Positions 1 to 46,971 of a stretch of DNA of 64,000 bases are shown in pieces; position 1 is the first letter of the stretch, and each line of letters opens with the position of its first letter. The stretch comes from Elsinoe ampelina. Its lineage: Eukaryota. Under the pieces are notes generated by a model, which was not told where the DNA came from, ran no database searches, and saw only the letters and a program-made list of their open reading frames with translations. A program made the position numbers and the translations under genes. The stretch spans positions 285,662-349,661 of the forward strand of contig ML992503.1 of NCBI GenBank assembly GCA_010093995.1, given 5' to 3'.

Positions 1-620
1 AGTCTTATAGTAGTATTATAATTAACATTAGAAGTACTAGGCAACTTTAATAGAGAATTTCTCTTCTTACTACTACCTCCGCTACCTAGTAGACTACTTA
101 GAGTACTAGCACTAGTAGCAATGCTACTAATGCCTAGCTATTGCTATACTATAGCGCTTATATTATAAGTGTTATTAATGTAGCATAGTAAGAAGGTAAA
201 AGTGTTATATAAAAGAAAAGGCTACTACTATAAGTATAATAAAGAAAGGAGAAATTATAAAGAGGCTAGCTAGATACTTATATCTCTTTAATTAAGACTT
301 ATAAGCTAGTCTATTTACATAAACAATAGCTGCCTAGCTATTGTTAATAGTTACTATTGTTGCTAGTAATTATAAGCCAAACTAATAGTAAATTCTCACT
401 AATGATTAGCTAACACTAACAATTATAAGTAATTACAAAGAGATAAAGTAATAAGCTAATCACTTTACTTACATATAATAGGATAGTTCTCTAGCTTTAA
501 CAATCTATACTAGAGAGGGAGTGTTATAATAGAAGGCTAGTATAGCTTCTCTAGTACTAAAGAACTAGCACTAATAAGTCAGCGCACGCACAGTAGATAA
601 ATTAGTTATTGTAACTCTCT
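1..620. mobile_element. RIP-mutated repeat/transposon relic (runs off left edge; right boundary approximate)
   Basis: Very AT-rich with TpA excess, CpA/TpG depletion and dense TAG/TAA, the pattern left by repeat-induced point mutation. Composition shifts to normal at about 600-800. Family not identifiable. Confidence 0.8.
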
Positions 621-1102
621 AAATGAAATACATGTCTCTCGATCCGATTTGCTAGTTATAACATTAGTGAGGCATCTTCGTGCTAGAAACAACAGTCTCG
701 GCTTATTTAGATGATATTGTAACCTTTCGCAATATCAAAAACATAACTTTGCGCTTGTTGCTAAGGCAGGGAATGAAATTAGCATGATCTTATTGACTGC
801 TTCATCGTGTGATACCGTTGTTGACACCAATCAAGCAGTTAATAGAGGAGACATGGTGGCCATCCAACACGGCAGACGAACAACGTCCGTCTCACGATAG
901 TGATACATGATAGCTGAATGACTTATCAAGGTGGGCTGGGAGCAGTCCGACAGCGTCCTGACGGACGTTAGCGTCTCTCCCCAGGGCGACAGCGAGGCAG
1001 GCAAGTCTCACAGCAGGACTCATGCCAGCAGTGAGACGCTAGCGATGAACGATGTAATTCAAAGGTCTACGTGAGCGTGTTACCCCACTCCCTCCTCCCC
1101 CT

Positions 1103-1810
1103 CTACCGACCCATATTATAAGTATAAACACTCTCCCTCGTCCCCTGCCCGGCCACCCTCCCCACCCCCACCGCAAACCCACACGCCAAAATCGCCGCCA
1201 CCCACTGGAGTCCCACCAACGTATTCCCAGCCGCAAAATACCTCTCCTCGCCCGCGGTGTACTCATCCATGACCACCATCGCCCTGACCGCCTGCGTCGT
1301 CGCCCACGCACTCGCCACCATCAACACCGCGCCCACACTCGCCGCCATCCGCGCCGCGACCCGCCAGCTGCGCCCCGCGTTGCCGCCCTTGGCGAGAATC
1401 ACCATCGTGATGAGACCAAGAGACACAAGCCACGCCAGCCCACCAGCCGTCATGAACGCCACGAAAACCTTCCTCTGGAGATCCAACGCGAACTGGATGC
1501 CTCGGATGGTGTCGTCCCGCCTCTCCTCGGGGAAGTGTGCTTCGGCGATGCCCTGCGCCGATTTTCCGGTCGAGGCAACGCAGAGGGTAGGCGACCCGCC
1601 GCCGACCCAGCAGAGGCCGTAGTAGCCGATGCGAAGGGAGGTGTCTTGGCGTGATTCGGTGTTCCAGGCGGCCGAGAGGAGGTAGATGTTGGAGAGGGAG
1701 GGGGAGGTGGAGGACATGAGGGGGAAGAGGGTGAGGAGGAAGATGAGCGGGGAGAGGAGCCAGAGGAGGAGGCCTAGGGAGGCTGAGCGGAGGGAGGTGG
1801 GGAGGGCCAT
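1103..1810 (-). CDS. Fig1/SUR7/PalI-like (claudin-fold) multi-pass membrane protein
   Basis: 235-aa ORF with an N-terminal TM helix, the loop motif LRIGYYGLCW...C and three further hydrophobic helices. Confidence 0.7.
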   Translation of the reverse strand: MALPTSLRSASLGLLLWLLSPLIFLLTLFPLMSSTSPSLSNIYLLSAAWNTESRQDTSLRIGYYGLCWVGGGSPTLCVASTGKSAQGIAEAHFPEERRDDTIRGIQFALDLQRKVFVAFMTAGGLAWLVSLGLITMVILAKGGNAGRSWRVAARMAASVGAVLMVASAWATTQAVRAMVVMDEYTAGEERYFAAGNTLVGLQWVAAILACGFAVGVGRVAGQGTRESVYTYNMGR

Positions 1811-33296: not shown

Positions 33297-34227
33297 CTAA
33301 GCGGAGAAACCATAGCTGCTCGCGGTGTAGAACCAATCACTGCCCCTCCACTGACCCACTTCGGTAGCATAGCTGCTGTCCAAGACACGGTCGTACAAGT
33401 GACAGAACAGCTGGTCCAAGGTATTCTCGTTGTTGATGAACTGGTAGTACGTGCTGAAGAAGTTGCACGGCTTCTCGTCCGGCTGACCAGCTGCCCAGTT
33501 GGTGTGCTCAGTACACTTCGCCGCACAGTCGGCTGCGTTCAGGACGGACTGGGAGTAGTATTCTCTGACTCTGTATTGAGGGGCAAAGATGGCGCCGGAG
33601 CTGAAGTACTGGCGGGTGGAGTAGCCTGGAGGAGGGACGATGCCAGTCTTGACGTAGCCGTTAGACCCGGCGATGACGATCTGGAATTGCTGGTTGGTGT
33701 AGCCGACGTTGGTGAGGGAGTCGAGAGTGAGAGGACCGCCCCAGAGGACGCACTTGATGTAGGCTACGCCGTCTGGGTTGGGACATGCGGCGCCGGGAGT
33801 AAGGCTGGGTCCGCGTTCGAAGAGGATGTTGAAGCCCTGGCATGTTGGCTTGCCAGCACATGCGGCAGCACAGGCTGGAACGTCATAGGAAGTAAGCAGA
33901 GTATGGCCCAAGTAGTCATTGCCACTAAGCATTGTCAACAAGAGTGTAACATGCCGTGTTGGTGTCTGCTTACTTCTTGGATGCCTGCTGGTTTGTAAAG
34001 ACAGAGGCGAAGCCGGATGGGACAGCTGCTCCGTTGGCAGCGACAGCGAACGAAGTCGCTCCGGTAAAGCCTGCAGCCGAGGTTGCGTCGAAGGCGTACC
34101 CAGAAACTCCGGGAGCTTCAGGGTCACAAGCAGCACGCTTGTCGAGGAAGGATGTTGGGGCAGCTGCTACGAGAGCAGACAAGCCGGCGAGAGCCGAAAG
34201 AGCGGATAGAGCGTGCATCTTGTGCAT
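33297..34227 (-). CDS. Secreted Cys-rich protein with PAN/Apple-like domains, 2 exons
   Basis: Signal peptide plus a KR (Kex2) site, intron 33925..33973, and two CAAxC...C..FN/FF modules (YDVPACAAAC...CQGFNI...IKCVLWG...IAGSNGY; ADCAAKC...CNFF...CHLY). Confidence 0.8.
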
Positions 34228-35910
34228 CTTGAAACGAGGAGGGACTGACAGATGTTTTGAATCTGCTAGAGTCTGGAGAAGAAGGTGCTGGGAGCTGATG
34301 AATCTCTACCTACCTGGGGATGACCGCCCTTTTATAGACCAGATGTACGCAGCAGCGCTCGAAGAAACTCTTGTCATCTGCCTCAAGATCGATAGCTGGA
34401 TCTAGATCGAGGATGTGGTCGCGATGGTCGACAAAAACTCACCGCCGTTGTGCTGGCGCGGGATGGAAGCGAAGGGGCGTGCAGTCTTCATTGCCATAGG
34501 ATTGCATGGTCCGCGATGGCTCGCCAATGAGGATCCCAGGCATAACCATGACCTCGCGGGATCCTGACCATGCTGCATCTCAACAACATCTCAAAGCGGA
34601 CGATTGTCTCGGATTACCTGGTCTGCAAGTCGAGACAAAGCCATGATGGGGGGTGGTCCAGTGTCGCCAGTGGATGGAACTTGAGGAGTCATGGAGGCGT
34701 AGAAACGTTTGTGTCTGGCTTGGACTATTGAGGAAGAGAGGAAGTAGCCTGGTCAATGCAGTGTGGAGAGCTGATTCTAGACTCCCACGGCATGTACAAG
34801 CCGACGTGCAAATTGAGTTGCACGACGAGAACTCGGACTTGATTAATACTCATGTCGCTGCCGCGCATTAGGTCAAAATGAGAGAGTGATTCATCTGGCC
34901 ATTTGACGTGTCTCCATCATGTTGGCGTAATCGACAAGGTGGTCTGTACAATGAAAGACGTGCTAAGGCATCGAAGTGCAGGTGCGCGAGGAAAGCAGAG
35001 ACACGGGGGATCCAAGACGATCAGCCTGCATGCATCCATGTCTTAAGCGAGCGAAGCATGAGCCTCGCAAGTGGAGACTGGCTCTGATGGTGTAGCACAT
35101 ATCCCACGAAGTAGCAAGGTGTGGTGGGGACACGACCCTGGCGCATGAGCGTCTGCCATGAGTTACGTCGAGATTGCGCAGTGATAGACTCACAGATACC
35201 GTATGTCTCGATCGAGACGAAAAAGGCCCTTCGATCACGTTAAGGCCTCGATTCAAACATTATGTGTGTATGGCTGTGCGCGAAGTATTCGTGGACTGTC
35301 GTTCAAGACCTTGTATGCTGTGTCGGGAGGCCCGTCAAGTACGTCCCGTGCCGAGGAAGTGCCAGGGACCGGGTAAGGCTAGATCAATCTGGCATCAATG
35401 ATCCTGCCGAGTCCAGCCACAGCACCCTCAAAGTCATTGGCAACTCCCTCCGCTCCGAGACTCGATCATACTCGCCCTTTTCCCGGCCTGGGCGTCCTCT
35501 TCTTGGGTCCTCTTCTTGGCCTTCTTAGTCATAGAAACAGATCCAGATGACGCCACAGCGCTATCGAAGCGGAGGCGATGGTGATTCGAAGAGCACATAG
35601 GGCTTTGCATAGTCACATCCTGAGCATGAAATGGTGCGGCTGAGAAATGTGTAGCGTAGGATTGCGGGGAAGCAGTGTTCCGGACGGACGGTTACCACAC
35701 CACCATCGGCATCGGCCAATGTGTGTCTATGCATCCATCCTGGTCATTGGATACCTGCAGCGTGGGTGTCGGTTGATGGCGTTTCTTTCTTTGTCTGCCT
35801 TTGGGCAAGCCGCCAATGCCTCGCAAGTTGCATGATCGCCAGGGACGCCATCCACCATTTTCCTTTCCGGGACAGGTCTCGTGTTCAGACACAATGGACG
35901 GTTGATAATT

Positions 35911-35931
35911 GTGACCCTTGTATCAAAACTC
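35911..35931 (+). repeat. Left terminal inverted repeat GTGACCCTTGTATCAAAACTC
   Basis: Exact reverse complement of 40907..40927. Confidence 0.95.
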
Positions 35932-36265
35932 CTCAGGCCCAACCCCTTTTCGGCGTCACCCTTCTTAATGCGGAGAACTCCACCAATTCTTCATGTAATT
36001 TTATATAATTAATACTATTAAATTTCTCTCGTCAAGACGAGTTTATGAATATATAAATTATATAGTTCAGTAGTCGTGGTAGTAGTAATATTATTGCTGT
36101 AGTAACCGCCCTAGGGGGGCAACTAGGCAAGTCGAGTACTATAATATTAACCTCTGTCAATTCGAGCCGTACGTATACCTTATGCCTTTTTTAGCCCCTT
36201 AGTACATATTTAGATCGAATACCTTACTATCCTCTTATAAATTCGATTATATAATTACTATTAGT

Positions 36266-37085
36266 ATGTCTAGGAAAGGCCTCTATAATATAGTAGTAAG
36301 GCAAGCACGTTAGTAAGCCGAGCAAGCGCAGGTCGCTACTTAGGCCGTAGCATAAGTAGCAAAGACTATAGAAGAGTAGCAAAGACTATAAGAGTAAGTA
36401 CTAGATTATCTAATCTTAGAGTTGTAATTTCGCCTACAATTCTAGTAATTTAGAGGCTAACTATTATAGCTTTAATAACAAATAGTGCTATTCGACTACC
36501 ACGAACGATTAAGACTTCTAGCACGTTACAGACGACAAGTAGTAAAGCCTCTATCTTGCTCTAGAAGCTATAGAAGCTAGCGACAATACTAAGGCAAAGA
36601 AGATTGCCTTAATAAGCCTCCGCTATGTCGTTTACGCCGGCGAGATTATAGAGATAGAGAAGGGAGAGCTAGCACTAGCACTGTGCTACTAGTGTAGTTA
36701 TAAGGCTAAGGGGAATAATAGAGTAGATAGAGACTTAGAGGTTTATTACGTTTAGAAGGAGAAGAGTAAGAGTAAGTCGTATAGATACTATGTAAGGGAG
36801 AGTAAGGATCATTACTCGGCGCTAGCTAGAGAATCGTCGTCGGAATTGCAGGTTAAATCGCAAGATCTAGCGGAGTTAAAGACACGCTATAAGCTTCTAG
36901 AAGCTGTCTTATTAAAAGCCGTAGATACTATCTAGTAGTAAGAGAAGAGGATCCGCTAGCTAGAGGGCGCAGTCTTTAGTAAGAAGGAGAAGGAGGAAGG
37001 GGTTAATAAGATAGAGAGGGTAGAGGAGAGAGAGGTAGTAGTAGAGGATAAGGTGCTACTAGAGAATAAGGCCGAGGAGTTATAA
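36266..37085 (+). pseudogene. RIP-destroyed element gene A (Cys-cluster + coiled coil)
   Basis: ATG 36266 and a GTAAGT...GCTAAC...TAG intron. One continuous frame broken only by TAG/TAA at likely Gln/Trp codons, ending in an E/K-rich tail. Confidence 0.55.
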
Positions 37086-37149
37086 TTATAAACCTATAAT
37101 CATTAGCGAGGCGTTTAGTTGTATTATAATACCTAATAGAGCAAGGCAT

Positions 37150-38940
37150 GCCTTTTTGACTGTTAATACTACTCCTTATCGAGTCTTCTTAGTTGGCCTA
37201 GTCCTTCTCCTACTCCTCTATATACTAACTAACTACCTCTTTTGCTCGGCACTAGTTACAAAGTCTTCCGGCTAAATAATATCTACATCTAGCGGTTGGT
37301 CTTAATAAGTTAAAGAAGCCTAGCGCCTTTCCGGAGCTTAAGATTGCCGTGTTATAGTAGTAGAAGACTTTTTAGCCCCTTAAGTTGTTGCTAGTAGTAG
37401 GTTAAATTCAACCGACCTAAAGACGTCTCTATAGTCGGAAGGGGTTAGAGTAGGTAAAGCACTCTAGCTACGCCCCTTTAAAGCCTCTAGTGGATTAAAC
37501 CATCGAAACTCGCTAGTTAACAAGTCTATAATACATATTAAGGTTAGTAGTTAGTATAGATCGATCGTCTATAACGTCTAACTACGCTTATTCTTAATAG
37601 CTACCTCGGCGGTAGGTAGACTAGTTATTACAGCTGTTAGTGCTTGTATAAATAATAGAGGACTATTAGCATTATAATTAATAAAGTCTACTTCGAATTA
37701 AGTAACGCCTCTAAGAGAAGACTTACGCTATAATTTAGAGAGTATAAATCGCTACTCGATTTGCTAAAGCCTTACATTAATAACAGATTATATATGCGCG
37801 TAATATGCCGCGTTAGTCTCCTTAATTAAGCGAACTAGATTGTTAGCTAGATTATAAGATATATCGCGAGATAGATCGTAAGATAGATTACGAGATAAAT
37901 TATAAGCTAGAGTTGTACGAGATAGAGGCTAAGTTAGAGGCTAAGATAGACGCTAAGATATAACACTAGTTCGAGGTTGCAATTTACGCGCGATTAAGCT
38001 ACAATTCGACGCTAGGGGATAGCTAGTCTTCGCACGTTTATAGAAGATAGAAACCTCCTTAATAGCTTAGTCTAATATCTCGTCGGTTTTGTATTTATAA
38101 ACTAGCTTAATGTACCTCCTTTTGTTTAATCCGGCGCCGCTAGTGCTAAAAGCCTTAAGTAGCTCTTCTAGAGAGTCGCGGTAGAGTATATACTACATTA
38201 GTATAATTAGCCTATTATCTATATTAAAGTCGTTAACGAGGTAGTAATCTACGTAACTATTAAATATCTCTTTACTATACCGCTCTAGATTAAAGAAGGT
38301 CTAGTTCTCTATATAGAAAGCGATTAAATCGCATAAGCGATACTAATAGTTCGAATCGCTAGGGGCAATCGTAGGTAGAGTAATATCCGGCGCGAGAGTA
38401 CTCTAGAGCGTAACAATATATTGTCTCTTATAGACTATAACTCTATTATAGTTTAAACTACGCGTAATCTTAAAGATGTCGACGAGAATATACGTTGACG
38501 CCTTCTAACTCTTTACGTGCTAAGTTAGTAGCCTTATAGCTTTAGATTTTAAGGTAGTAGTATAGGTAGCTACTAGCAGCTTAAAGCTAGAGCGATATAG
38601 ATTAGCGGTAGTTATAGGACAGCTAGATTACTAAGGCGGCGGCAGTAACGACAAGAGCTATATAGTCGAAGTTAGAGGGACTAGAGGAGGTAGTATAACT
38701 AGGGTAGGTCGACGCGAGTCGCTAAGAATTATAGAGGTAACTCGCTTATAGGCGACTAATAGCTAACGTAACAACGAGGCTATCGATTCTCGTTAAAAAG
38801 GCCTCCTATTACTACGATAGTAAGGATTAACTATATTGCACTAGCCGCATCTAGTATATCTCTCTAGTATGTCGACGTAGCTAAGAGACATTAAAGCCTT
38901 AGTGTAGAGGGTAATCTAACGATTAATAATTAAAGCTATA
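37150..38940 (-). pseudogene. RIP-destroyed element gene B (low-complexity, Pro/Ser-rich after de-RIP; boundaries approximate)
   Basis: Long minus-strand frames interrupted by RIP-type stops, with 12-bp periodic repeats at about 37860-37960. Confidence 0.4.
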
Positions 38941-39199
38941 ACAACTAGAAAGCAAAAGGGATAAGATTAGAAGGATAAACAAGTAGGGGAAACGCGTTTT
39001 TATAATAGTAATTACTGCGGTAAGTTGCTAAGTCATTAGTATAATTCACTTAGTAATTCTAGTAGCCTTCTCCCCCTAAATACGTCGAAATTCGTCCGAT
39101 AGCATAAAAGACCCTAGCTAATTATCTTCGTACGCGTATAGCCTTATTAATTTAGTTAGAAGAGGCTTAGCTCCTATAGCAATATAAAATCGAGCCTAG

Positions 39200-40546
39200 T
39201 TATAGAGAAGCTAATATATAGCTATATAAACTTTGTTACTATTGTCGAAGATAGTATAACTATTAAAATTAGCAAATTCTCTAGCTATAAGTATAGTTTT
39301 ATACCACTAAAGAGTATTAGCTAGTAGATATTCGTTAGGATTTAGAAATTTGTCAATCTGCAATTCGGTAGCGATTTACACTATAATTCGTATATTAAAA
39401 TTTTATAAGTTTGCCTAGTACTCTTCGATTAGTAGTAGCGGTACTTTAACTCTAGAGTAAACTCCTCTACGGCGCTCTAGATAGCTATAATTCAGCTCTA
39501 GCACTCTAGAGACTGTCTATAGCCTCCTCCTCGTCTAATTCCGGATAGCTCTATAATTGTAAGTCTAGGTAAAGGTCTCTATCTCTTGTCGAATAATTAG
39601 TATATAGACGGCGAGAAAGGTAACTCTATTAGGTAAGGAGCTTACTATAAATCCTTAATCGGCTATAAGATCGGTGAAGTAAGCTCTCTAAGGATCTAGC
39701 TACCTTGCCTACTAACTCTAGTATACCTTAATCTACTAGTTCGAACGAGAGGTACTATACCGGAAGTAATCCTCGAAGTGTAAGGGGGCTAAGTAATTAC
39801 CTCTAGGTGGCCGAATAGCTTAACTTAGTTCGTAATAGAGGTTAGCGACTTAGATAGTCTCTGTACTACAATCTATAACGAGTTAGTGTAGCATTATACT
39901 ACTAGCTACAATCGCTGCTAGGTATTAGACTACTACGGATTATTAAGTATATCTAGAGATACCGTAGTAGATCTAGATAACCTATCGTAACTACGTATCG
40001 ATTGCTCTATATATCTATAGCCCCTAATGCTCGAATTTGCAATAAGTATCTATATACTATACGAAATCTAGACTAGTAGAATAATTAACTAGCTAGTTGA
40101 CTCGAAGGCGTCGTCTACGATGCTTAAAGTCCTCTAGATAAAGGAAACGAGATATAGTAGTTATATAGTAACTACGTGTAGTATTAGCGATTCTCTCGGC
40201 AATTCTACCCCCTTAAATCGCACTTATATTCCAACAAGATTATACTACTACCTTATGTAGGTATATATTATACTTCGTCTATATACCTTAATATTGTCTT
40301 ACTTATACTTATACTATAATGCCTTAAGTATTATAGTATCTCTATGCTCCTTATCGCTCTTACTTAACTCTACCTACTTCTAGAGGCCTATATTACAGCA
40401 GATGTGTCGGAGGCCTTTAAGGCTAAGTTCGTAGCTGTCCTCTTAGAGAAGCTTAAGTATATAGCTATCTATAATACAGTAGTCGAAGAAGAGCTACTAG
40501 ATGCGCTCTCGTAGCTTAGGGGTGTTATTAGTCTTAGGGCAAGCTA
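39200..40546 (+). pseudogene. RIP-destroyed element gene C (unknown globular protein; boundaries approximate)
   Basis: Plus-strand protein-like frames (e.g. LLEAYITADVSEAFKAKFVAVLLEKLK) with RIP-type stops and a GTAAGT donor near 39559. Confidence 0.4.
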
Positions 40547-40906
40547 ATACTCCCTAATCCTTTAAGCGTCTTACTAGAGTAATATAGCTTATTATAATAC
40601 TATACTCTTAAAGAATCTTAACTACGTTGTCTCTAGTATAGCGCTCTAAGGTTATCTAGTCGGTAATACTCTCTTACTAGCTGTCAATGTTAATCCCTAG
40701 TCGAGGCATTATTTATTCGGGCAGAGGAAAAGTTTAAAGAGCAATTACGTAAGGATAGTTATAGTTATAATTATGAAAATTAAAGAAAATAATAGCGCTA
40801 ATAGTTCTCTACCACTTACTGTTGATCTGATGATTTAATAATCAGTGTTGGTGAAGTTGGCCATTTTAGGAAGGATAATAATCCTTATTGAGAAGTGGAG
40901 TTGGAA

Positions 40907-40927
40907 GAGTTTTGATACAAGGGTCAC
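40907..40927 (-). repeat. Right terminal inverted repeat
   Basis: GAGTTTTGATACAAGGGTCAC, the reverse complement of the left TIR. Confidence 0.95.
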
Positions 40928-41509
40928 AATTTACACCCATACAATGCCCCATGTCCGTGGAGCTTAGTAACAGTATCCTTGCCGTGCTCGTCTGAGACAG
41001 AGTCGCAGGCCAGCCAGCTTCGATGAATGTATCTTGAAGGTCATTGTCGCCATCTCAGCCTCACTTCGGACCGGGACAACGGCCAGTGCGCACGTCTGGC
41101 TCATCGGCAGTTTGGTCCGAAGAGATGAGAGGTCGTGCGGACGAGAAGTCTCTCGGTAGGCATGACGGGCACTGGCGCAGGTGCCAGTGGTACAGCCGAT
41201 AGTCGCGAGCAGTGTGGTATCTTGCATCAGAGCGGTGTCCAAATATTCGTGGAGAAGCGCGGCAGGATGGCAGCTATTGTTGCAACTCTCATCGAGTTGA
41301 TCATAATCTGCATTTGGGATTGTGATTGGTGGGAGACAGGCGTGAGCTCCGATGAAAGTCCATAATCGCAATCTCCGCGCCGCCCTTTGACGTGTCGTGC
41401 ATTGGCGCAGCAAGGGCGCTTACTGAGTCATGGCAGTGCTCCAGTATGATATAAGATAGTTATGTGAATCCGTTCTCCGGCCTGATCTCCACTTTGCCAA
41501 CCGCTCGCG

Positions 41510-42904
41510 ATGCGTATCGCACCTAGTCCCCACGAGGGTCTCTGCGACGAGATCCCCGAGACGCCACCGGCGGTGAGCACCTCGTCCATTCTGCGCGCGT
41601 GTGCGGCCAGTGGGACTATTTCGTTCAGCATCACCGGCATAATGACCATCCTCGGAGCGCATCGAAGTGGCGCACACACCCGCCTCACTGCTGTCAGCAG
41701 TATTCTCCTCACGGGGGTATTAATTTGGGACCGAACACGGACGGATCGCGAGGAGCGCTCGTTCCTCAGGTCGCGTAACATCGAAATACCCCCACGCAGA
41801 TGGATCGATCGACTGCAACACCTTGACGGTGACGGTATTCTGTTGTGTAGTGGCCTTCTCGGTGTAGCGACAAGGCTGGGAACCCCAAAGTCCCTCTTCA
41901 GCCCGCTGCATAAGCGTTACATCAACTCCCTGATTTCCAACGACATTATCAAGGCAAACCAAAGCCCCCTGCGTGCAGGTCGCGTGGTGCAGGCGACCAG
42001 GTGGGAAACGGGTCTCGCAGCCTTCAGCTATGGCACGGCTCTCGCTCTCGGGTCTCTGTTTTTCTTGACCCCGAAAAATGTATTTGCCATTCCGAGTATG
42101 ATCGGCCATGCCCAAGGAGATGTGCGCCGCTTAGCGCGAGCTGGGCTCACAATCAACGATGTCTCGGAGATCCCATCTATGGCTTGTGAACAACCTCAAA
42201 CAGATATGCGCATGCCCGAGCCTTTGGAACAAGATTATCTGCCGAGTAATGGTCCGGACAACATGGATATGGACCCAAAGGATGCTCGAAGCGGTTCGTC
42301 CGGACATGCAAGATCGAGGCTGTTCCGCATTCTGCGGCGCGTCACTCCAGATAGCGTCTCCAACGACGAAGTCAATGCAATGATGATCGAGGGTCGAATT
42401 CCGCGCCCAGAGGCCCTCACAAAGGAGTTCGATCGCCTTGTTGAAGTTCAGACTATGGTTGGTAGATTGAGAAGAAACAAAGGCCGGTGTATGGAGAATT
42501 GGTTCATGAGGCAGGATGACACTCCAGCCAGGCTCGCACTGCTATCTTTAATCGAACAAAGTGTGCGGAACGACATAGCTGAGATCACAGCGCTGATCGC
42601 CAAAGCCAAGAGGTCTCCAAGTCGAGTGGCTGTCCCTGTCTCTTCTGGTTTCACTGTCAAGGAGGTATTGGAACCGCAGGGTCCACCTGGGCAATTGACC
42701 ATTGAGCGTGTTCTGAGTTGGACCTTGGCAGAATGTCGACGGAAGATCGAGAAGACGTCGAGTTATCCATCGGACGAGGATCGAGCATCAGCTGTACGGG
42801 CGCAAGCCATTGCTGATGAGAGTGTCCAATTGAGGTTCGAGTTGAATCATTTCAGCATATTCTTCGAGTTCTTCTGGCTGAAAAATCTTCTGGGCAGGGA
42901 CTAG
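41510..42904 (+). CDS. Uncharacterised membrane + coiled-coil protein, family member 3
   Basis: 464-aa intronless ORF. The motif FLRSRNIEIPPRRWIDRLQHLDGDGILLCSGLLG aligns by eye with members 1 and 2. Confidence 0.75.
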   Translation: MRIAPSPHEGLCDEIPETPPAVSTSSILRACAASGTISFSITGIMTILGAHRSGAHTRLTAVSSILLTGVLIWDRTRTDREERSFLRSRNIEIPPRRWIDRLQHLDGDGILLCSGLLGVATRLGTPKSLFSPLHKRYINSLISNDIIKANQSPLRAGRVVQATRWETGLAAFSYGTALALGSLFFLTPKNVFAIPSMIGHAQGDVRRLARAGLTINDVSEIPSMACEQPQTDMRMPEPLEQDYLPSNGPDNMDMDPKDARSGSSGHARSRLFRILRRVTPDSVSNDEVNAMMIEGRIPRPEALTKEFDRLVEVQTMVGRLRRNKGRCMENWFMRQDDTPARLALLSLIEQSVRNDIAEITALIAKAKRSPSRVAVPVSSGFTVKEVLEPQGPPGQLTIERVLSWTLAECRRKIEKTSSYPSDEDRASAVRAQAIADESVQLRFELNHFSIFFEFFWLKNLLGRD

Positions 42905-43594: not shown

Positions 43595-46500
43595 CTAAGC
43601 CCTGTTCGCGCTCTGGTACATCTCCACCTTGAACGCATCTCCCTCCGCACGAGGCTCTTTGCCCGAGCCATGGTATATCTCCACGTTGAAAGCCAGTTCT
43701 GTTCCCTCCTGACCTGTCCTTGTTCGTCTCCCTTGGACTACGGTGATGACGTCTCCGTGGTAGAGTCGTCCGAAGAGGAGGCGACCTTTCTCGTCTGTCT
43801 TGGTCAGCCGCTTCCCGTTGACATGGATGCCGTGACGGCTCTGCGTCGCTATGGTGCAACCTAGGTCCGGGAATTTGGTCCAGTCCTGGCCGGAATCCGC
43901 GACATCGTCGGTCAATCCGGGGGCGTTAAAGAAGATGATGATGCCACATTTGGGGACGCGGGTGTCGCTCTGATTCTCGTATGCGTATGTGTTGTCCGGG
44001 GCACGGCCCCAAGTAGTGATCCGCTGTGTCAATTTGATCTCGATGTGGCTGAAGGAGTCTGCCGTGGTGACGAGCTGTCCGAGACGGGGAGGTGGGACCA
44101 CGAATTTGGCCGAGGAAGCCAGCGAAGTGGCATCTGTCACCGTGTCTTTCCTCTGACTGCGGATAACCGGAGCGTCAAGGTCATCCTCATCCGATTCTGC
44201 CTTGGTATCTGACGCCTCCAACGGCGCCGATTGCGTAATTTGATCATGAGATCCTGCAGCCATGGCGGCCACACGAGCGAAAGAGTCGAAATGGATAGAT
44301 GAGACAGTGGGATTTGCGGAAAAGTCGTGACCGGACTGTATGGACGCATATTCGGGATTGTGAGTGCTAGGGTCATTGGGATCATACCAGTATGCGGCAG
44401 GAAAGTCTAGCTGAATCTGACGACGGAAGGGTACAGGACGAGGTGTGATTTCGTGAGCCTTTGTTGGTGTCTCCTCGAAAATGTCGCCATTGCTGTCCAA
44501 GTTGGTCTGCTTTCCGTTCGGTGGGTCAGGCGTACGTGGCTCGTTAGCATCTGCTGAAGGAGAGTTGTCGGAACGAGGCGAGTCCATGTTAAGGTCTCTA
44601 ACCATTGACTCAGCTCCAAGCAGACTATTGTTACCGACCTGACGACTCAGAGCAAAAGAGTCTGGTCTGCCTTGTTCTCCTGCAGACTTGCCTAGATGTG
44701 ACGAGCCATTTGACATGTTACCCGAGCTGTGACCAGCGCCATGAACATTGTCCCCGGCATTGACAGCCACAGACCCTGGTTCATTCAGCATCGAAGTCGT
44801 GACCTCGCCGAACAGCATTGGACGACGCGGCTGACCCTGGGATATCCCCTCAAATCTGGCATGTCCACCTGAGCTACTTGATCCGGACGGCTGACTTTGT
44901 GACTTCTGATGCTTGAGCCGTTTCGACTCTCGAGGATCAAGAAAGTCCAGGTCCGAGGAGTCGAAGCTGATTTCTCCTGCACCAAGCGACCCCTCGTCGA
45001 TCCTAAGCTGCGAGAGATCAGGTTCCTCGTTCTCTTTGCCATCAGAGTCCTCTTCCTCCTCATCGATAGCACCGAGCTCGCTCTGGTCCCGCACATCTGT
45101 TCCCCGTTCAACTAATCCATCGAACCAAGGATGCTGCAGGCATTGAGCAGGTGTCGGACGATCCGCCGGATTTGTGTTGAGCATATGGTAGAGAAGGTCG
45201 ATGGCATCAGTCTGTACTCCATGTTCCAGCAGTGGATTGGGATTGAGCAAGGTGTGCATGATCATGTCGAACATACCCTTACCATTGGTGTCCATAACAC
45301 CCTCGAAAGGGGTCTTGCCGCAAAGAGCATACCACAGGACAGCGCCGAAGGACCAGACATCCACAGATTGGCTATAAGAGTGATAAGTCTTCTGGTTGGA
45401 AGCAGTCCTGCGCTGACGCTTGAGACCACCGTTTTGAGCGACATGAGCGTCGTAATGTGGGAAGACCTCTGGAGCACAGTAGAGTAATGTACCACAGAAA
45501 GTCTTTAAGAAAGTTTCATTGTCTTTGACCACTTTGGATAGTCCAAAGTCCGAGAGCTTGACCCAAAAGTTATCGGGATCAGTATTAGCGATCAGGATAT
45601 TGTCTGGCTTGATGTCGCGATGCGTGATACGCTTCGTGTGCAGGTAAGACAAAGCGCTGAGGACTTGGACAGACATGGACTTTGCCATGGATTCGGAAAG
45701 AGGACCGTTGTTGGAGATGTATTGCTGAAGGTCACCACACCCAACAAACTCCATAATGATGTAGAGATGCTTGTCGTGGTCGTGATACTCGACGTACTGG
45801 ACGATGTTTGGATGGCTCAGATCTTTCATGATCTGCATCTCGTTGTCGAGCTTGCGGTCCAGGACACCGTTCTTCATGAACTTGCGCTTTTCAAGTTCCT
45901 TGGCGGCATAGAGAATGCCATCTGCCTTGGTGGCTAGCTGGAAGACGGTCGCGAACGCTCCTTTTCCCAGATGCCCAACCACGTTGTACTTTGAGCCTCC
46001 ATTCCAGCGCATACCCCAGTCGTTCCTGTTGAAAGGCTGACGAGTACCAGGGAGGGTGATGACTCTTGTCGGCACTCCGGCCGGTCTTTGGGGCTGTTGT
46101 ACTGTCTGTATCTGCTTCTCGTGTGCGGCTTGAGCTTGGGCGGCACTAGCAGCCTCAACAGCGGTGACTTCCTGCATATATGACCTGAAATTGTCCTCGT
46201 ACTCTTTCTCGAAGCCATTCCGCTGCGGAATACGGACGATGAATTTGATGACCTCGTCAGGCTTGGAGGATAGAATTTGGATGACCGATCCAGACTTGAG
46301 CATACGGGTGCGAGCAATGTTCAGATTCGGCTTTCCTTGGAGCAGTACGTCGTCGACGAGGGTGCCATTGGTGGATATATCTTGAAGCATGAGGACGCCT
46401 TGGTGGTTCATGAATATGCGGAAATGTATGTTACTGACTCGACGGATAGTATCCGTGTCGAAGATCAGGTCACACTGGTTGATGTTCCGGCCGAAAATGA

Positions 46501-46792
46501 AGCCATTAGCAACATTCTTGACAGGGGCGGAGAAGCGGAGAGCGAGATCCATAGCAACCCTTGGTTCATTTTCTGGTAGGATGAGTTGGAAGTCGTCGAA
46601 TTGCAAGACATGCTTTGGCTGCCGCCTGGCGGTACGGGCAACGATTTCGAGAGCCGCATCCGAGGCAGGGTGCAGAATACAGATCACATCTGCTATGTCG
46701 GCCGAGTCGAGGTCCGAAAAGTGGTTGCCAGTGCGTCGCGGGTCGAAGGCCTTTTGCGTCAACTCTTGCGTCTGGGATGGTACGAATGCCAT
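43595..46792 (-). CDS. RAD53: Checkpoint kinase Rad53/Chk2 (FHA-kinase-FHA); possible 5' extension to 47183
   Basis: N-terminal SQ/TQ cluster (SQTQELTQ), FHA1 (FGRN...SNIH...STNGT), kinase (GKGAFA, AAKE, HRDIKPDN, DFG, APE) and FHA2 (WGR...HGIHVNG). Confidence 0.92.
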   Translation of the reverse strand: MAFVPSQTQELTQKAFDPRRTGNHFSDLDSADIADVICILHPASDAALEIVARTARRQPKHVLQFDDFQLILPENEPRVAMDLALRFSAPVKNVANGFIFGRNINQCDLIFDTDTIRRVSNIHFRIFMNHQGVLMLQDISTNGTLVDDVLLQGKPNLNIARTRMLKSGSVIQILSSKPDEVIKFIVRIPQRNGFEKEYEDNFRSYMQEVTAVEAASAAQAQAAHEKQIQTVQQPQRPAGVPTRVITLPGTRQPFNRNDWGMRWNGGSKYNVVGHLGKGAFATVFQLATKADGILYAAKELEKRKFMKNGVLDRKLDNEMQIMKDLSHPNIVQYVEYHDHDKHLYIIMEFVGCGDLQQYISNNGPLSESMAKSMSVQVLSALSYLHTKRITHRDIKPDNILIANTDPDNFWVKLSDFGLSKVVKDNETFLKTFCGTLLYCAPEVFPHYDAHVAQNGGLKRQRRTASNQKTYHSYSQSVDVWSFGAVLWYALCGKTPFEGVMDTNGKGMFDMIMHTLLNPNPLLEHGVQTDAIDLLYHMLNTNPADRPTPAQCLQHPWFDGLVERGTDVRDQSELGAIDEEEEDSDGKENEEPDLSQLRIDEGSLGAGEISFDSSDLDFLDPRESKRLKHQKSQSQPSGSSSSGGHARFEGISQGQPRRPMLFGEVTTSMLNEPGSVAVNAGDNVHGAGHSSGNMSNGSSHLGKSAGEQGRPDSFALSRQVGNNSLLGAESMVRDLNMDSPRSDNSPSADANEPRTPDPPNGKQTNLDSNGDIFEETPTKAHEITPRPVPFRRQIQLDFPAAYWYDPNDPSTHNPEYASIQSGHDFSANPTVSSIHFDSFARVAAMAAGSHDQITQSAPLEASDTKAESDEDDLDAPVIRSQRKDTVTDATSLASSAKFVVPPPRLGQLVTTADSFSHIEIKLTQRITTWGRAPDNTYAYENQSDTRVPKCGIIIFFNAPGLTDDVADSGQDWTKFPDLGCTIATQSRHGIHVNGKRLTKTDEKGRLLFGRLYHGDVITVVQGRRTRTGQEGTELAFNVEIYHGSGKEPRAEGDAFKVEMYQSANRA

Positions 46793-46971
46793 GTTGTGGC
46801 AGTTTTGACTTACATAGACGTGCTTCGTCGTGAGACCCCCAGCCCTCTCCGCAGTCTTCGCTTGCGTCGCGACGACTGTGAAGTGGGGCCGGGGGTCTCG
46901 GCTTCTGTGCACCCCCTCCCTGATCATCGTCAACGCCGCCCAATGGAACCATCACAGAATGAAACACATAC

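Follow-up and report, generated by a model that had tools for sequence, protein, structure and literature searches.

A RIP-degraded DNA transposon of probable IS3EU/GingerRoot type in Elsinoe ampelina

The element at 35897-40941 of the window (i.e. the whole 64,000 nt stretch of contig ML992503.1 that was analysed) is most probably a dead transposon of IS3EU/GingerRoot type, one copy of an autonomous cut-and-paste DNA element with an integrase-like DDE transposase. Transposons of this kind are known but poorly described, and the element is a variant of them. The initial annotation of this DNA had offered two options, a poorly described multi-ORF transposon family or a non-autonomous gene-carrying element. 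The first has stood, and fits IS3EU, a superfamily that has been little described and that includes fungal members with several genes (Styx/REP9 and the IS3EU elements of rusts) in the papers cited below; the second falls because the element appears to have a transposase of its own.

The ends of the element

The complete RIP-mutated element is 5045 bp long, and is matched by contigs of other copies. These contigs come from runs X1 and X2 of one sample and, among the loose ends listed, they match the window from 35896 or 35897 and up to 40941. The G at 35897 is present in all three of the other left flanks seen in the contigs, and was therefore counted as part of the element. Directly outside the contig-defined left end is the sequence CAATG (35892-35896), and CAATG can also be read at 40942-40946 beyond the right end. 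In a second copy the left flank is ...CTCGAGA followed by G and the right flank GAGAGG..., giving GAGAG on either side, provided that the X1 left flank and the X2 right flank belong to one copy. Both copies for which the two flanks are readable thus have a target site duplication (TSD) of 5 bp, CAATG and GAGAG. A 6 bp TSD would need a mismatch in this copy, together with a variable base that was G by chance in four copies. An 8 bp hAT-like TSD (ACACAATG / ATACAATG) is unsupported by the second copy, and the hAT family gave no match.

The left terminal inverted repeat (TIR) lies at 35897-35931 on the plus strand and the right TIR at 40907-40941 on the minus strand, both 35 bp in length. The outer 10 bp of the left TIR (GACGGTTGAT) pair imperfectly, while the inner 25 bp are perfect. 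The right TIR ends in ...CCATA (reverse complement TATGG...), so that the element has the termini GACGG..CCATA. Aligned without gaps, the two ends agree at 30 of the 35 positions, and the pair was also found in the repeat search. A perfect TIR had been noted before, and this inverted repeat is real, being 25 bp when AATT is counted (35907-35931 and 40907-40931). The ends had been placed at 35907 and 40931, each 10 bp inside its actual position, and the duplication had been read as AATT, AT or absent. Since AATT is internal to the 35 bp TIR, the comparisons with Sola1 (AWWT), ISL2EU (AT) and Spy (blunt) that were built on those ends fall. Their only likeness to this element is the AATT, AT or AA^TT string beside the perfect part of the TIR; AATT is 10 bp inside the ends shared between copies, and no matching transposase family was found.

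Further in there is a pair of subterminal repeats, at 35960-35986 (plus) and 40848-40874 (minus), located at similar distances of 64 and 68 nt from the ends. The 20/27 match reported earlier for this pair is present, although it is weak; its local score of 26 was attained in 77 of 2000 shuffles. The repeats are a possible candidate for a transposase binding site.

A transposase hidden by RIP

The element encodes on its minus strand a predicted transposase, the integrase-type DDE core of which has been obscured by RIP. The relic gene lies at 38950-40560 (limits approximate), with the first bases of its codons in phase with position 40929; its start codon is not identifiable. The frame contains 53 stops in 537 codons, comprising 24 TAA, 28 TAG and a single TGA. 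The core (39514-40062, minus strand) matches Pfam PF24764 (rva_4, "Integrase core domain") over profile positions 10-181 of 194. The whole-frame translation gave E 7e-4, the sole match among seven translations in that Pfam search, and rva_4 was found neither in the other six translations nor in the six frames of an AT-rich control at 1-1200 of the window. Four readings of 39400-40200 (minus strand) were compared, and rva_4 was the only family in all four. It was best when TAG was read as W, on the basis of the RIP change TGG to TAG (E 1.5e-5; 25.2 bits, slightly below the curated cutoff of 26), followed by TAG as Q (E 0.0029), the reading with X (E 0.067, 13.3 bits) and that with all stops as W (E 0.68, 10.1 bits).

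The putative catalytic residues can be placed within this core. The first D (GAT, 40048-40050, minus strand) lies in V-*-Y-I-D, which becomes W-H-I-D once RIP-type changes are reversed. The second (GAT, 39871-39873, minus strand) lies 59 residues further on in I-D-C-S-T-E-T-I, where the S is derivable from G through RIP. The position of the catalytic E (39727-39729, minus strand) is 48 residues past the second D, in S-N-*-*-I-K-V-Y-*-S. It is now AAG, encoding K; this codon is preceded by T, and is thus the product expected of GAG on conversion of TpG to TpA by RIP.

These motifs were compared by eye with the IS3EU and GingerRoot rows of the alignment in Data S3 of PMC10045372. The order is WHID, then IDAWSR 17 residues on, then D-x-G-T-E-T-I a further 42 residues on, with the block S-N-Q-x-I-E-x-x-W-S located 48 residues past the second D. 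Against the Puccinia graminis IS3EU row the motif blocks are identical at 29 of 59 positions by hand count, allowing TpA to stand for CpA or TpG. The correspondence between rva_4 and IS3EU suggested here is drawn from this comparison by eye and not from the output of a search. The string W-H-I-D-G on the plus strand at about 39598 was considered as the first catalytic motif and rejected; the rest of that frame does not fit, and the Pfam match is on the opposite strand. We note that the plus-strand open stretches in this right-hand region are antisense to the transposase.

Word-based searches for protein homologues of the transposase frame, at near and at longer lengths, returned none at E up to 0.01. 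RIP breaks up the five-residue words on which such searches rely. Comparison of the transposase frame and the whole -1 frame with PDB sequences gave no match, or chance-level matches only. The structure predicted for the RIP-damaged core (AlphaFold2, single sequence) had a mean pLDDT of 35.7 and was unusable.

The initial annotation held that no recognizable transposase was present, and named a transposase of known superfamily as the finding that would overturn this; with the rva_4 core on the minus strand the claim is refuted in its own terms. Its caveat, that a DDE motif might lie concealed beneath the RIP damage, was correct. The related proposal, that the element is non-autonomous or belongs to a new multi-ORF family lacking a transposase and was mobilized in trans, is very improbable in view of the near-full-length rva_4 core with its D, D and RIP-changed E inside the element, and of termini that resemble those of the IS3EU superfamily. 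It draws some support from the absence of any relatives for two of the three relic ORFs, and from the six read-through frames with TAG as Q, which gave no relevant family in Pfam at E up to 1.

Other searches of the element gave little. Five pieces had no match in Pfam (one of these, 38901-39479, was read out of frame), and six more with TAG as W gave only AbiJ_NTD4 at E 2.2 (37251-38100 was read out of frame). In a metagenome scan a 21 nt word from the TIR had no match; an 18 nt word was found at four loci, all by chance, with similarity ending at 18-19 nt.

Copy number and RIP damage

The element is multicopy. Contig depth is 523-1422 within it and 162-191 in the flanks, i.e. about 3-7-fold greater when summed. 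The differences between copies are nearly all transitions (C>T, G>A, T>C and A>G). Its body bears heavy RIP damage; the GC content is 0.36-0.38 (0.371 for the whole element) compared with approximately 0.52 in the flanks, the TA/AT ratio ranges from 1.6 to 1.96, and TpA dinucleotides number 807 against approximately 152 expected. The multicopy state and RIP damage had both been claimed from this sequence previously, and GC content, TpA count, contig depth and transitions all agree with this.

The level of RIP and the base composition are even along the whole 5 kb, and contig depth over the transposase region is raised as in the rest of the element. These observations argue against a reading in which the integrase-like stretch came from a different element, as a nested or captured fragment, and the TIRs are those of an unrelated carrier. 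So do the termini, which independently suggest the superfamily of the transposase. GingerRoot and other TIR elements do take up foreign fragments according to PMC6839031, and contig joints and loose ends reveal internal deletions and divergent stretches among the copies. Overall we consider such a capture to be highly unlikely, and prefer an IS3EU/GingerRoot-type transposon carrying its own transposase.

For such a transposon we infer a mechanism from the family to which the transposase is assigned. The active transposase, whose gene lies close to the right end on the minus strand, would have bound the 35 bp TIRs and perhaps the subterminal repeats, and cut at the GA.../...TA termini. Insertion into staggered cuts 5 bp apart would generate the 5 bp duplication. 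The family expanded to at least four copies in the genome and was then struck by RIP, which altered approximately 13% of the bases in this copy, leaving the 53 stops in the transposase frame and converting the catalytic glutamate codon to lysine. The other two relic genes are carried along, ORF-B sharing the strand of the transposase and ORF-A being on the other.

This copy is located in an apparently intergenic stretch. It is dead, and is without evident effect on the neighbouring genes.

Relationship to known transposons

The IS3EU elements of rusts are described as having TIRs of more than 30 bp and the termini TAYGG..CCRTA; their transposase and one other gene face in opposite directions, with a third gene in between (PMC12730594, PMC10045372). 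The present element resembles them in several respects. It has an integrase-like DDD/E core with the motifs W-H-x-D, h-D-[GA]-x-S-R, D-x-G-x-E-[NT] and N-Q-x-I-E-x-x-W, and its spacing of 59 residues between the first two catalytic D is equal to that counted by hand in two IS3EU rows. The TIR of 35 bp compares with at least 30 bp, the right terminus CCATA fits CCRTA and the left terminus GACGG fits TAYGG at four of five positions, and there are multiple genes, of which one is opposed to the transposase. There are also differences. TA..TA termini are reported for IS3EU and GingerRoot (PMC10045372, PMC6839031), whereas the left end here is GA, the T being replaced by G in this and three other copies. 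The TSD of these two groups is usually 6 bp (PMC12730594, PMC10045372), in contrast to 5 bp in two copies here. The spacing from D to E is 48 residues here, compared with 41-42 by hand count in two IS3EU rows, and the two further relic ORFs have no detectable relatives.

GingerRoot forms one transposase lineage with IS3EU, with 99% bootstrap support (PMC10045372), and similarly has TIRs and mostly TA..TA termini. It differs from the present element in its hosts, which are plants and animals, in a TSD of 6-8 bp, and in the frequent presence of captured gene fragments (PMC6839031).

The shorter TSD raises the question of a different integrase-bearing or 5-bp-TSD group (Ginger2/TDD, Transib or an LTR-retrotransposon derivative), with rva_4 reflecting a general likeness to integrases. 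LTR elements and Transib typically have a 5 bp TSD, which departs from the 6 bp usual for IS3EU, and the Pfam score is under the cutoff. We nevertheless regard this assignment as improbable. Among 28 translations of the element Pfam found no rve (PF00665), hAT, MULE, Tc1, Harbinger, RAG1, RT or RNase H; the ends are TIRs and not LTRs; and the motif strings match the IS3EU/GingerRoot rows rather than the Ginger2 or IS3 rows of the same published alignment. Ginger1/2, Polintons and LTR integrases have TG..CA or AG..TC termini, unlike GA..TA here, and Transib, while sharing the 5 bp TSD, would have termini beginning CAC and a RAG1 family match. Assignment to the IS3EU/GingerRoot kind remains our preferred interpretation.

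In ascomycetes, Styx/REP9 of Zymoseptoria is the sole well-studied relative of IS3EU in the accounts cited, where it is reported to reshape chromosomes and affect reproduction in a wheat pathogen. It is 7.9 kb long with TIRs of 36-43 bp and a 6 bp TSD, and has four genes, two of them with DUF3716, the last being an IS3EU-related integrase-type transposase (PMC8232023, PMC10853768). We compared it by description only, at the level of the superfamily. Both are multi-gene TIR elements of ascomycetes with an IS3EU-type transposase and accessory ORFs having few or no relatives, and both have RIP-degraded copies (in some genomes in the case of Styx) and solo or paired TIR remnants. The present element differs in its length of 5045 bp, its three relic ORFs, its 5 bp TSD and the lack of a DUF3716 match (none in Pfam at E up to 10, where RIP may mask a domain of 60 residues). 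It might represent a separate IS3EU/GingerRoot lineage of ascomycetes (Pezizomycotina), analogous to Styx but distinct from it, with a 5 bp TSD, GA..TA ends and two lineage-specific accessory genes; we put this forward only tentatively, and think it somewhat doubtful.

IS3EU is among the least characterized DNA transposon superfamilies in eukaryotes, and a second family from ascomycetes, differing in the length of its TSD and in its accessory genes, would broaden its known range. Annotation of transposable elements could gain, since RIP-damaged copies of such elements are now filed as 'unknown repeats'. Reading TAG as tryptophan can expose RIP-hidden transposases that are missed by ordinary read-through.

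The accessory open reading frames

The three genes had been ordered + / - / +. The first two strands are retained here and the third is reversed, giving + / - / - with the transposase on the right.

ORF-A (36447-37106, plus strand) has a CxxC motif and, after it, a charged stretch resembling a coiled coil; its strand assignment is less certain. No Pfam family and no solved relative was found for it, and neither alpha-kinase nor TET/JBP was detected by Pfam in the ORFs besides the transposase. Searches of PDB sequences with ORF-A and ORF-B gave nothing or chance-level matches; those for the element frames include TMEM106B (E 0.077) and ARPC1A (E 0.16).

ORF-B (37400-38891, minus strand) is a relic of approximately 480 codons. 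With TAG as Q it gave no match in a full HMMER scan of 1.84 billion representative proteins, nor did a word-based search find a protein homologue at E up to 0.01. An ATG of its own, at 38891, follows a pyrimidine-rich stretch, and we have treated ORF-B as separate from the transposase rather than as part of a single spliced gene. It has the lowest stop density of the six frames, with 3-7 stops per 100 codons compared with at least 7, and mostly at least 9, in the others, and it contains in-frame tandem repeats of 12 and 24 nt at 37848-37960.

A relic integrase core in the element

The element contains the relic of an integrase-type DDE core, in which the catalytic E has been changed by RIP. 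A Pfam search of the six read-through frames of the element, with both TAA and TAG read as Q, found no relevant family. RIP converts TGG to TAG, and TAG was therefore also read as W. With this reading one of seven translations matched PF24764 (rva_4, 'Integrase core domain') with E = 7e-4, over residues 290-472 (window ~40062-39514) and profile positions 10-181 of 194. The matching frame is on the minus strand, in phase with 40929. Neither the remaining frames under the same TAG = W reading nor the six frames of an AT-rich control (window 1-1200) gave rva_4 in Pfam. Within the trimmed stretch 39400-40200 of the minus strand rva_4 was the sole Pfam family in all four readings of the stops, i.e. 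with TAG as W and TAA as Q (E = 1.5e-5, 25.2 bits; the cutoff is 26), or with all stops as Q (E = 0.0029, 17.8 bits), as X (E = 0.067, 13.3 bits) or as W (E = 0.68, 10.1 bits). Other transposase, integrase (rve), RT and RAG1 families were absent among the 28 translations of the element searched against Pfam, two of which were off-frame. The transposase frame is coding-like from ~40560 to 38950 (minus strand), with 53 stops in 537 codons.

The frame was compared by hand, and thus qualitatively, with the IS3EU and GingerRoot rows of a published core alignment (Data S3, PMC10045372), allowing every TpA to be a former CpA or TpG. The first motif, V-*-Y-I-D-T-Y-C-K-F, reverts to V-W-H-I-D-..., where the published rows have V-W-H-I-D-G-Y-D-K-L. 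Seventeen residues further on, A-I-D-T-*-L-R reverts to A-I-D-A-W-S-R (F-I-D-A-W-S-R in Puccinia graminis), and 42 residues after this I-D-C-S-T-E-T-I reverts to D-C-G-T-E-T-I (D-R-G-T-E-T-I in the published rows). The fourth motif lies 48 residues past the second D, with S-N-*-*-I-K-V-Y-*-S reverting to S-N-Q-x-I-E-x-x-W-S (published rows H-N-Q-K-I-E-C-L-W-S). By hand count, 29 of 59 block positions are identical to the P. graminis row after reversal of RIP. The Ginger2 and bacterial IS3 rows of the same alignment have different strings. On the minus strand the first catalytic D is GAT at 40050-40048 and the second is GAT at 39873-39871; at the position of the catalytic E (39729-39727) there is AAG preceded by T, the RIP product of GAG. 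The spacing of the two D residues, 59, equals that in two IS3EU rows, whereas that from D to E is 48, compared with 41-42 in the same two rows (both hand counts).

The termini and the target site duplication

Contigs from two public sequencing runs of one sample were aligned to window 35300-41500 at 80% likeness. Among the loose ends listed, contigs with other flanks start matching at 35896 (n = 1) or 35897 (n = 2) on the left, and one with another flank stops matching at 40941 on the right. The element extends from 35897 to 40941 (5045 bp); the contigs of other copies place each of the ends initially annotated (35907 and 40931) 10 bp too far in. The perfect inverted repeat noted within 35907-40931 is present, and is 25 bp long with AATT counted. 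AATT had been taken to be flanking sequence; it is instead a palindromic, internal part of the terminal inverted repeats (TIRs), which are 35 bp long and, when both ends are compared without gaps, agree at 30 of the 35 positions. A subterminal match, 35960-35986 to 40848-40874, was confirmed at 20 of 27 positions, but is weak by itself, its score being reached by 77 of 2000 shuffles.

CAATG is found directly outside both ends, at 35892-35896 and 40942-40946. Elsewhere a left flank ends ...CTCGAGA+G and a right flank starts GAGAGG..., placing GAGAG on both sides of what we infer to be a single second copy. Agreement over 5 nt by chance is expected about once in 1000 per flank pair. A target site duplication (TSD) of 6 bp would require a mismatch in the window copy, and also that the 'target' base be G by coincidence in all four copies seen, while one of 8 bp (ACACAATG / ATACAATG) finds no support in the second copy. 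We therefore take the TSD to be 5 bp, from two copies only.

Relationship to IS3EU and GingerRoot

The element is very probably an autonomous DNA transposon of IS3EU/GingerRoot type that has been killed by RIP, and is ordinary in kind. IS3EU has TA..TA termini and a TSD of usually 6 bp, forming a single lineage together with GingerRoot (PMC10045372), which has TA..TA termini and a TSD of 6-8 bp (PMC6839031). Rust-fungus IS3EU is described with TIRs of >30 bp, ends TAYGG..CCRTA and 6-bp TSDs (PMC12730594); against these the element has GACGG...CCATA, the right end fitting fully and the left at four of five positions. The rust elements have a transposase gene and an oppositely oriented alpha-kinase gene with a TET/JBP gene between. 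IS3EU is also listed as the most abundant DNA transposon of Colletotrichum lupini (PMC11645255). A multi-gene fungal relative, Styx/REP9 of Zymoseptoria, is 7.9 kb long with four genes, TIRs of 36-43 bp and a TSD of 6 bp (PMC8232023, PMC10853768). The element differs from described IS3EU/GingerRoot members in its TSD (5 rather than 6 bp), in its left terminus (GA rather than TA) and in having two orphan accessory ORFs. Judging from the family, the transposase would have bound to the TIRs and cut at the termini of the element, with integration into staggered cuts 5 bp apart; all copies seen would later have been inactivated by RIP.

The accessory reading frames

ORF-B runs on the minus strand from an ATG at 38891 to ~37400. 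Over 1.4 kb stops are sparser in this frame than in any of the other five, and it contains 12- and 24-nt tandem repeats, in frame, at 37848-37960. One other copy continues with a different number of these units (loose end at 37864). ORF-A (~36447-37106) is assigned to the plus strand with less certainty, and has a CxxC motif, after which comes a charged stretch resembling a coiled coil. Neither matched Pfam, and comparison with PDB sequences gave only chance-level matches. ORF-B had no match in a word-based protein search, nor (with TAG as Q) in a full HMMER scan of 1.84 billion representatives. Alpha-kinase, TET/JBP and DUF3716 domains were undetected in either ORF, and RIP could hide such domains. 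The gene order was initially annotated as + / - / +; it is read here instead as ORF-A (+), ORF-B (-), transposase (-). What is open on the plus strand at 39500-40700 is antisense to the transposase.

RIP and copy number

The body of the element has a GC content of 0.36-0.38, compared with ~0.52 in its surroundings, with TA/AT of 1.6-1.96 and (CA+TG)/(AC+GT) of 0.25-0.58. CpA and TpG are each reduced to about a quarter of background, and TpA occurs 807 times against ~152 expected, which corresponds to ~13% of bases changed. The outermost ~100 bp on the left (35897-35996) and 60-100 bp on the right (about 40840-40941) are almost free of RIP, with 1-2 and 2-4 TpA per 50 bp respectively, compared with 5-12 inside, so that RIP has destroyed the genes but spared the TIRs and subterminal repeats.

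Summed contig depth is 523-1422 within the element and 162-191 in the flanks. The differences between copies are nearly all transitions; among those listed for one of the two runs there are 164 C>T, 165 G>A, 91 A>G and 89 T>C, with 18 transversions. The raised depth and the almost purely transition differences indicate a multicopy family whose copies were separately subjected to RIP; there are at least four in the genome. Contig joints at several places in 36669-40677 reveal internal deletions in other copies relative to that in the window (78-79, 83, 190, 241, 320, 427 and 769 bp), which is thus among the longer ones seen. One contig per run, at a single-copy depth of ~190, joins 35929 to 40910 (inner left to inner right TIR), skipping 4980 bp. 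These contigs may come from a miniature derivative that consists of TIRs only and lies at another site in the genome, or from a copy whose interior does not align.

The start of the window (1-1000) is likewise AT-rich and RIP-like, with a GC content of 0.357 and TA/AT of 1.56. This stretch is not similar to the element, and none of its six read-through frames matched a Pfam family convincingly; it is probably a further degraded repeat, truncated by the window edge.

The insertion site

The insertion looks intergenic. The nearest ORFs of at least 90 aa, at 33297-33932 and 41510-42904, do not adjoin it, and across the reconstructed empty site open stretches reach at most 96 codons. We note that, 2.7 kb beyond the right end of the element, there is an intact ORF of 1110 aa (43595-46927, minus strand), apparently a protein kinase with a regulatory region at its N-terminus.
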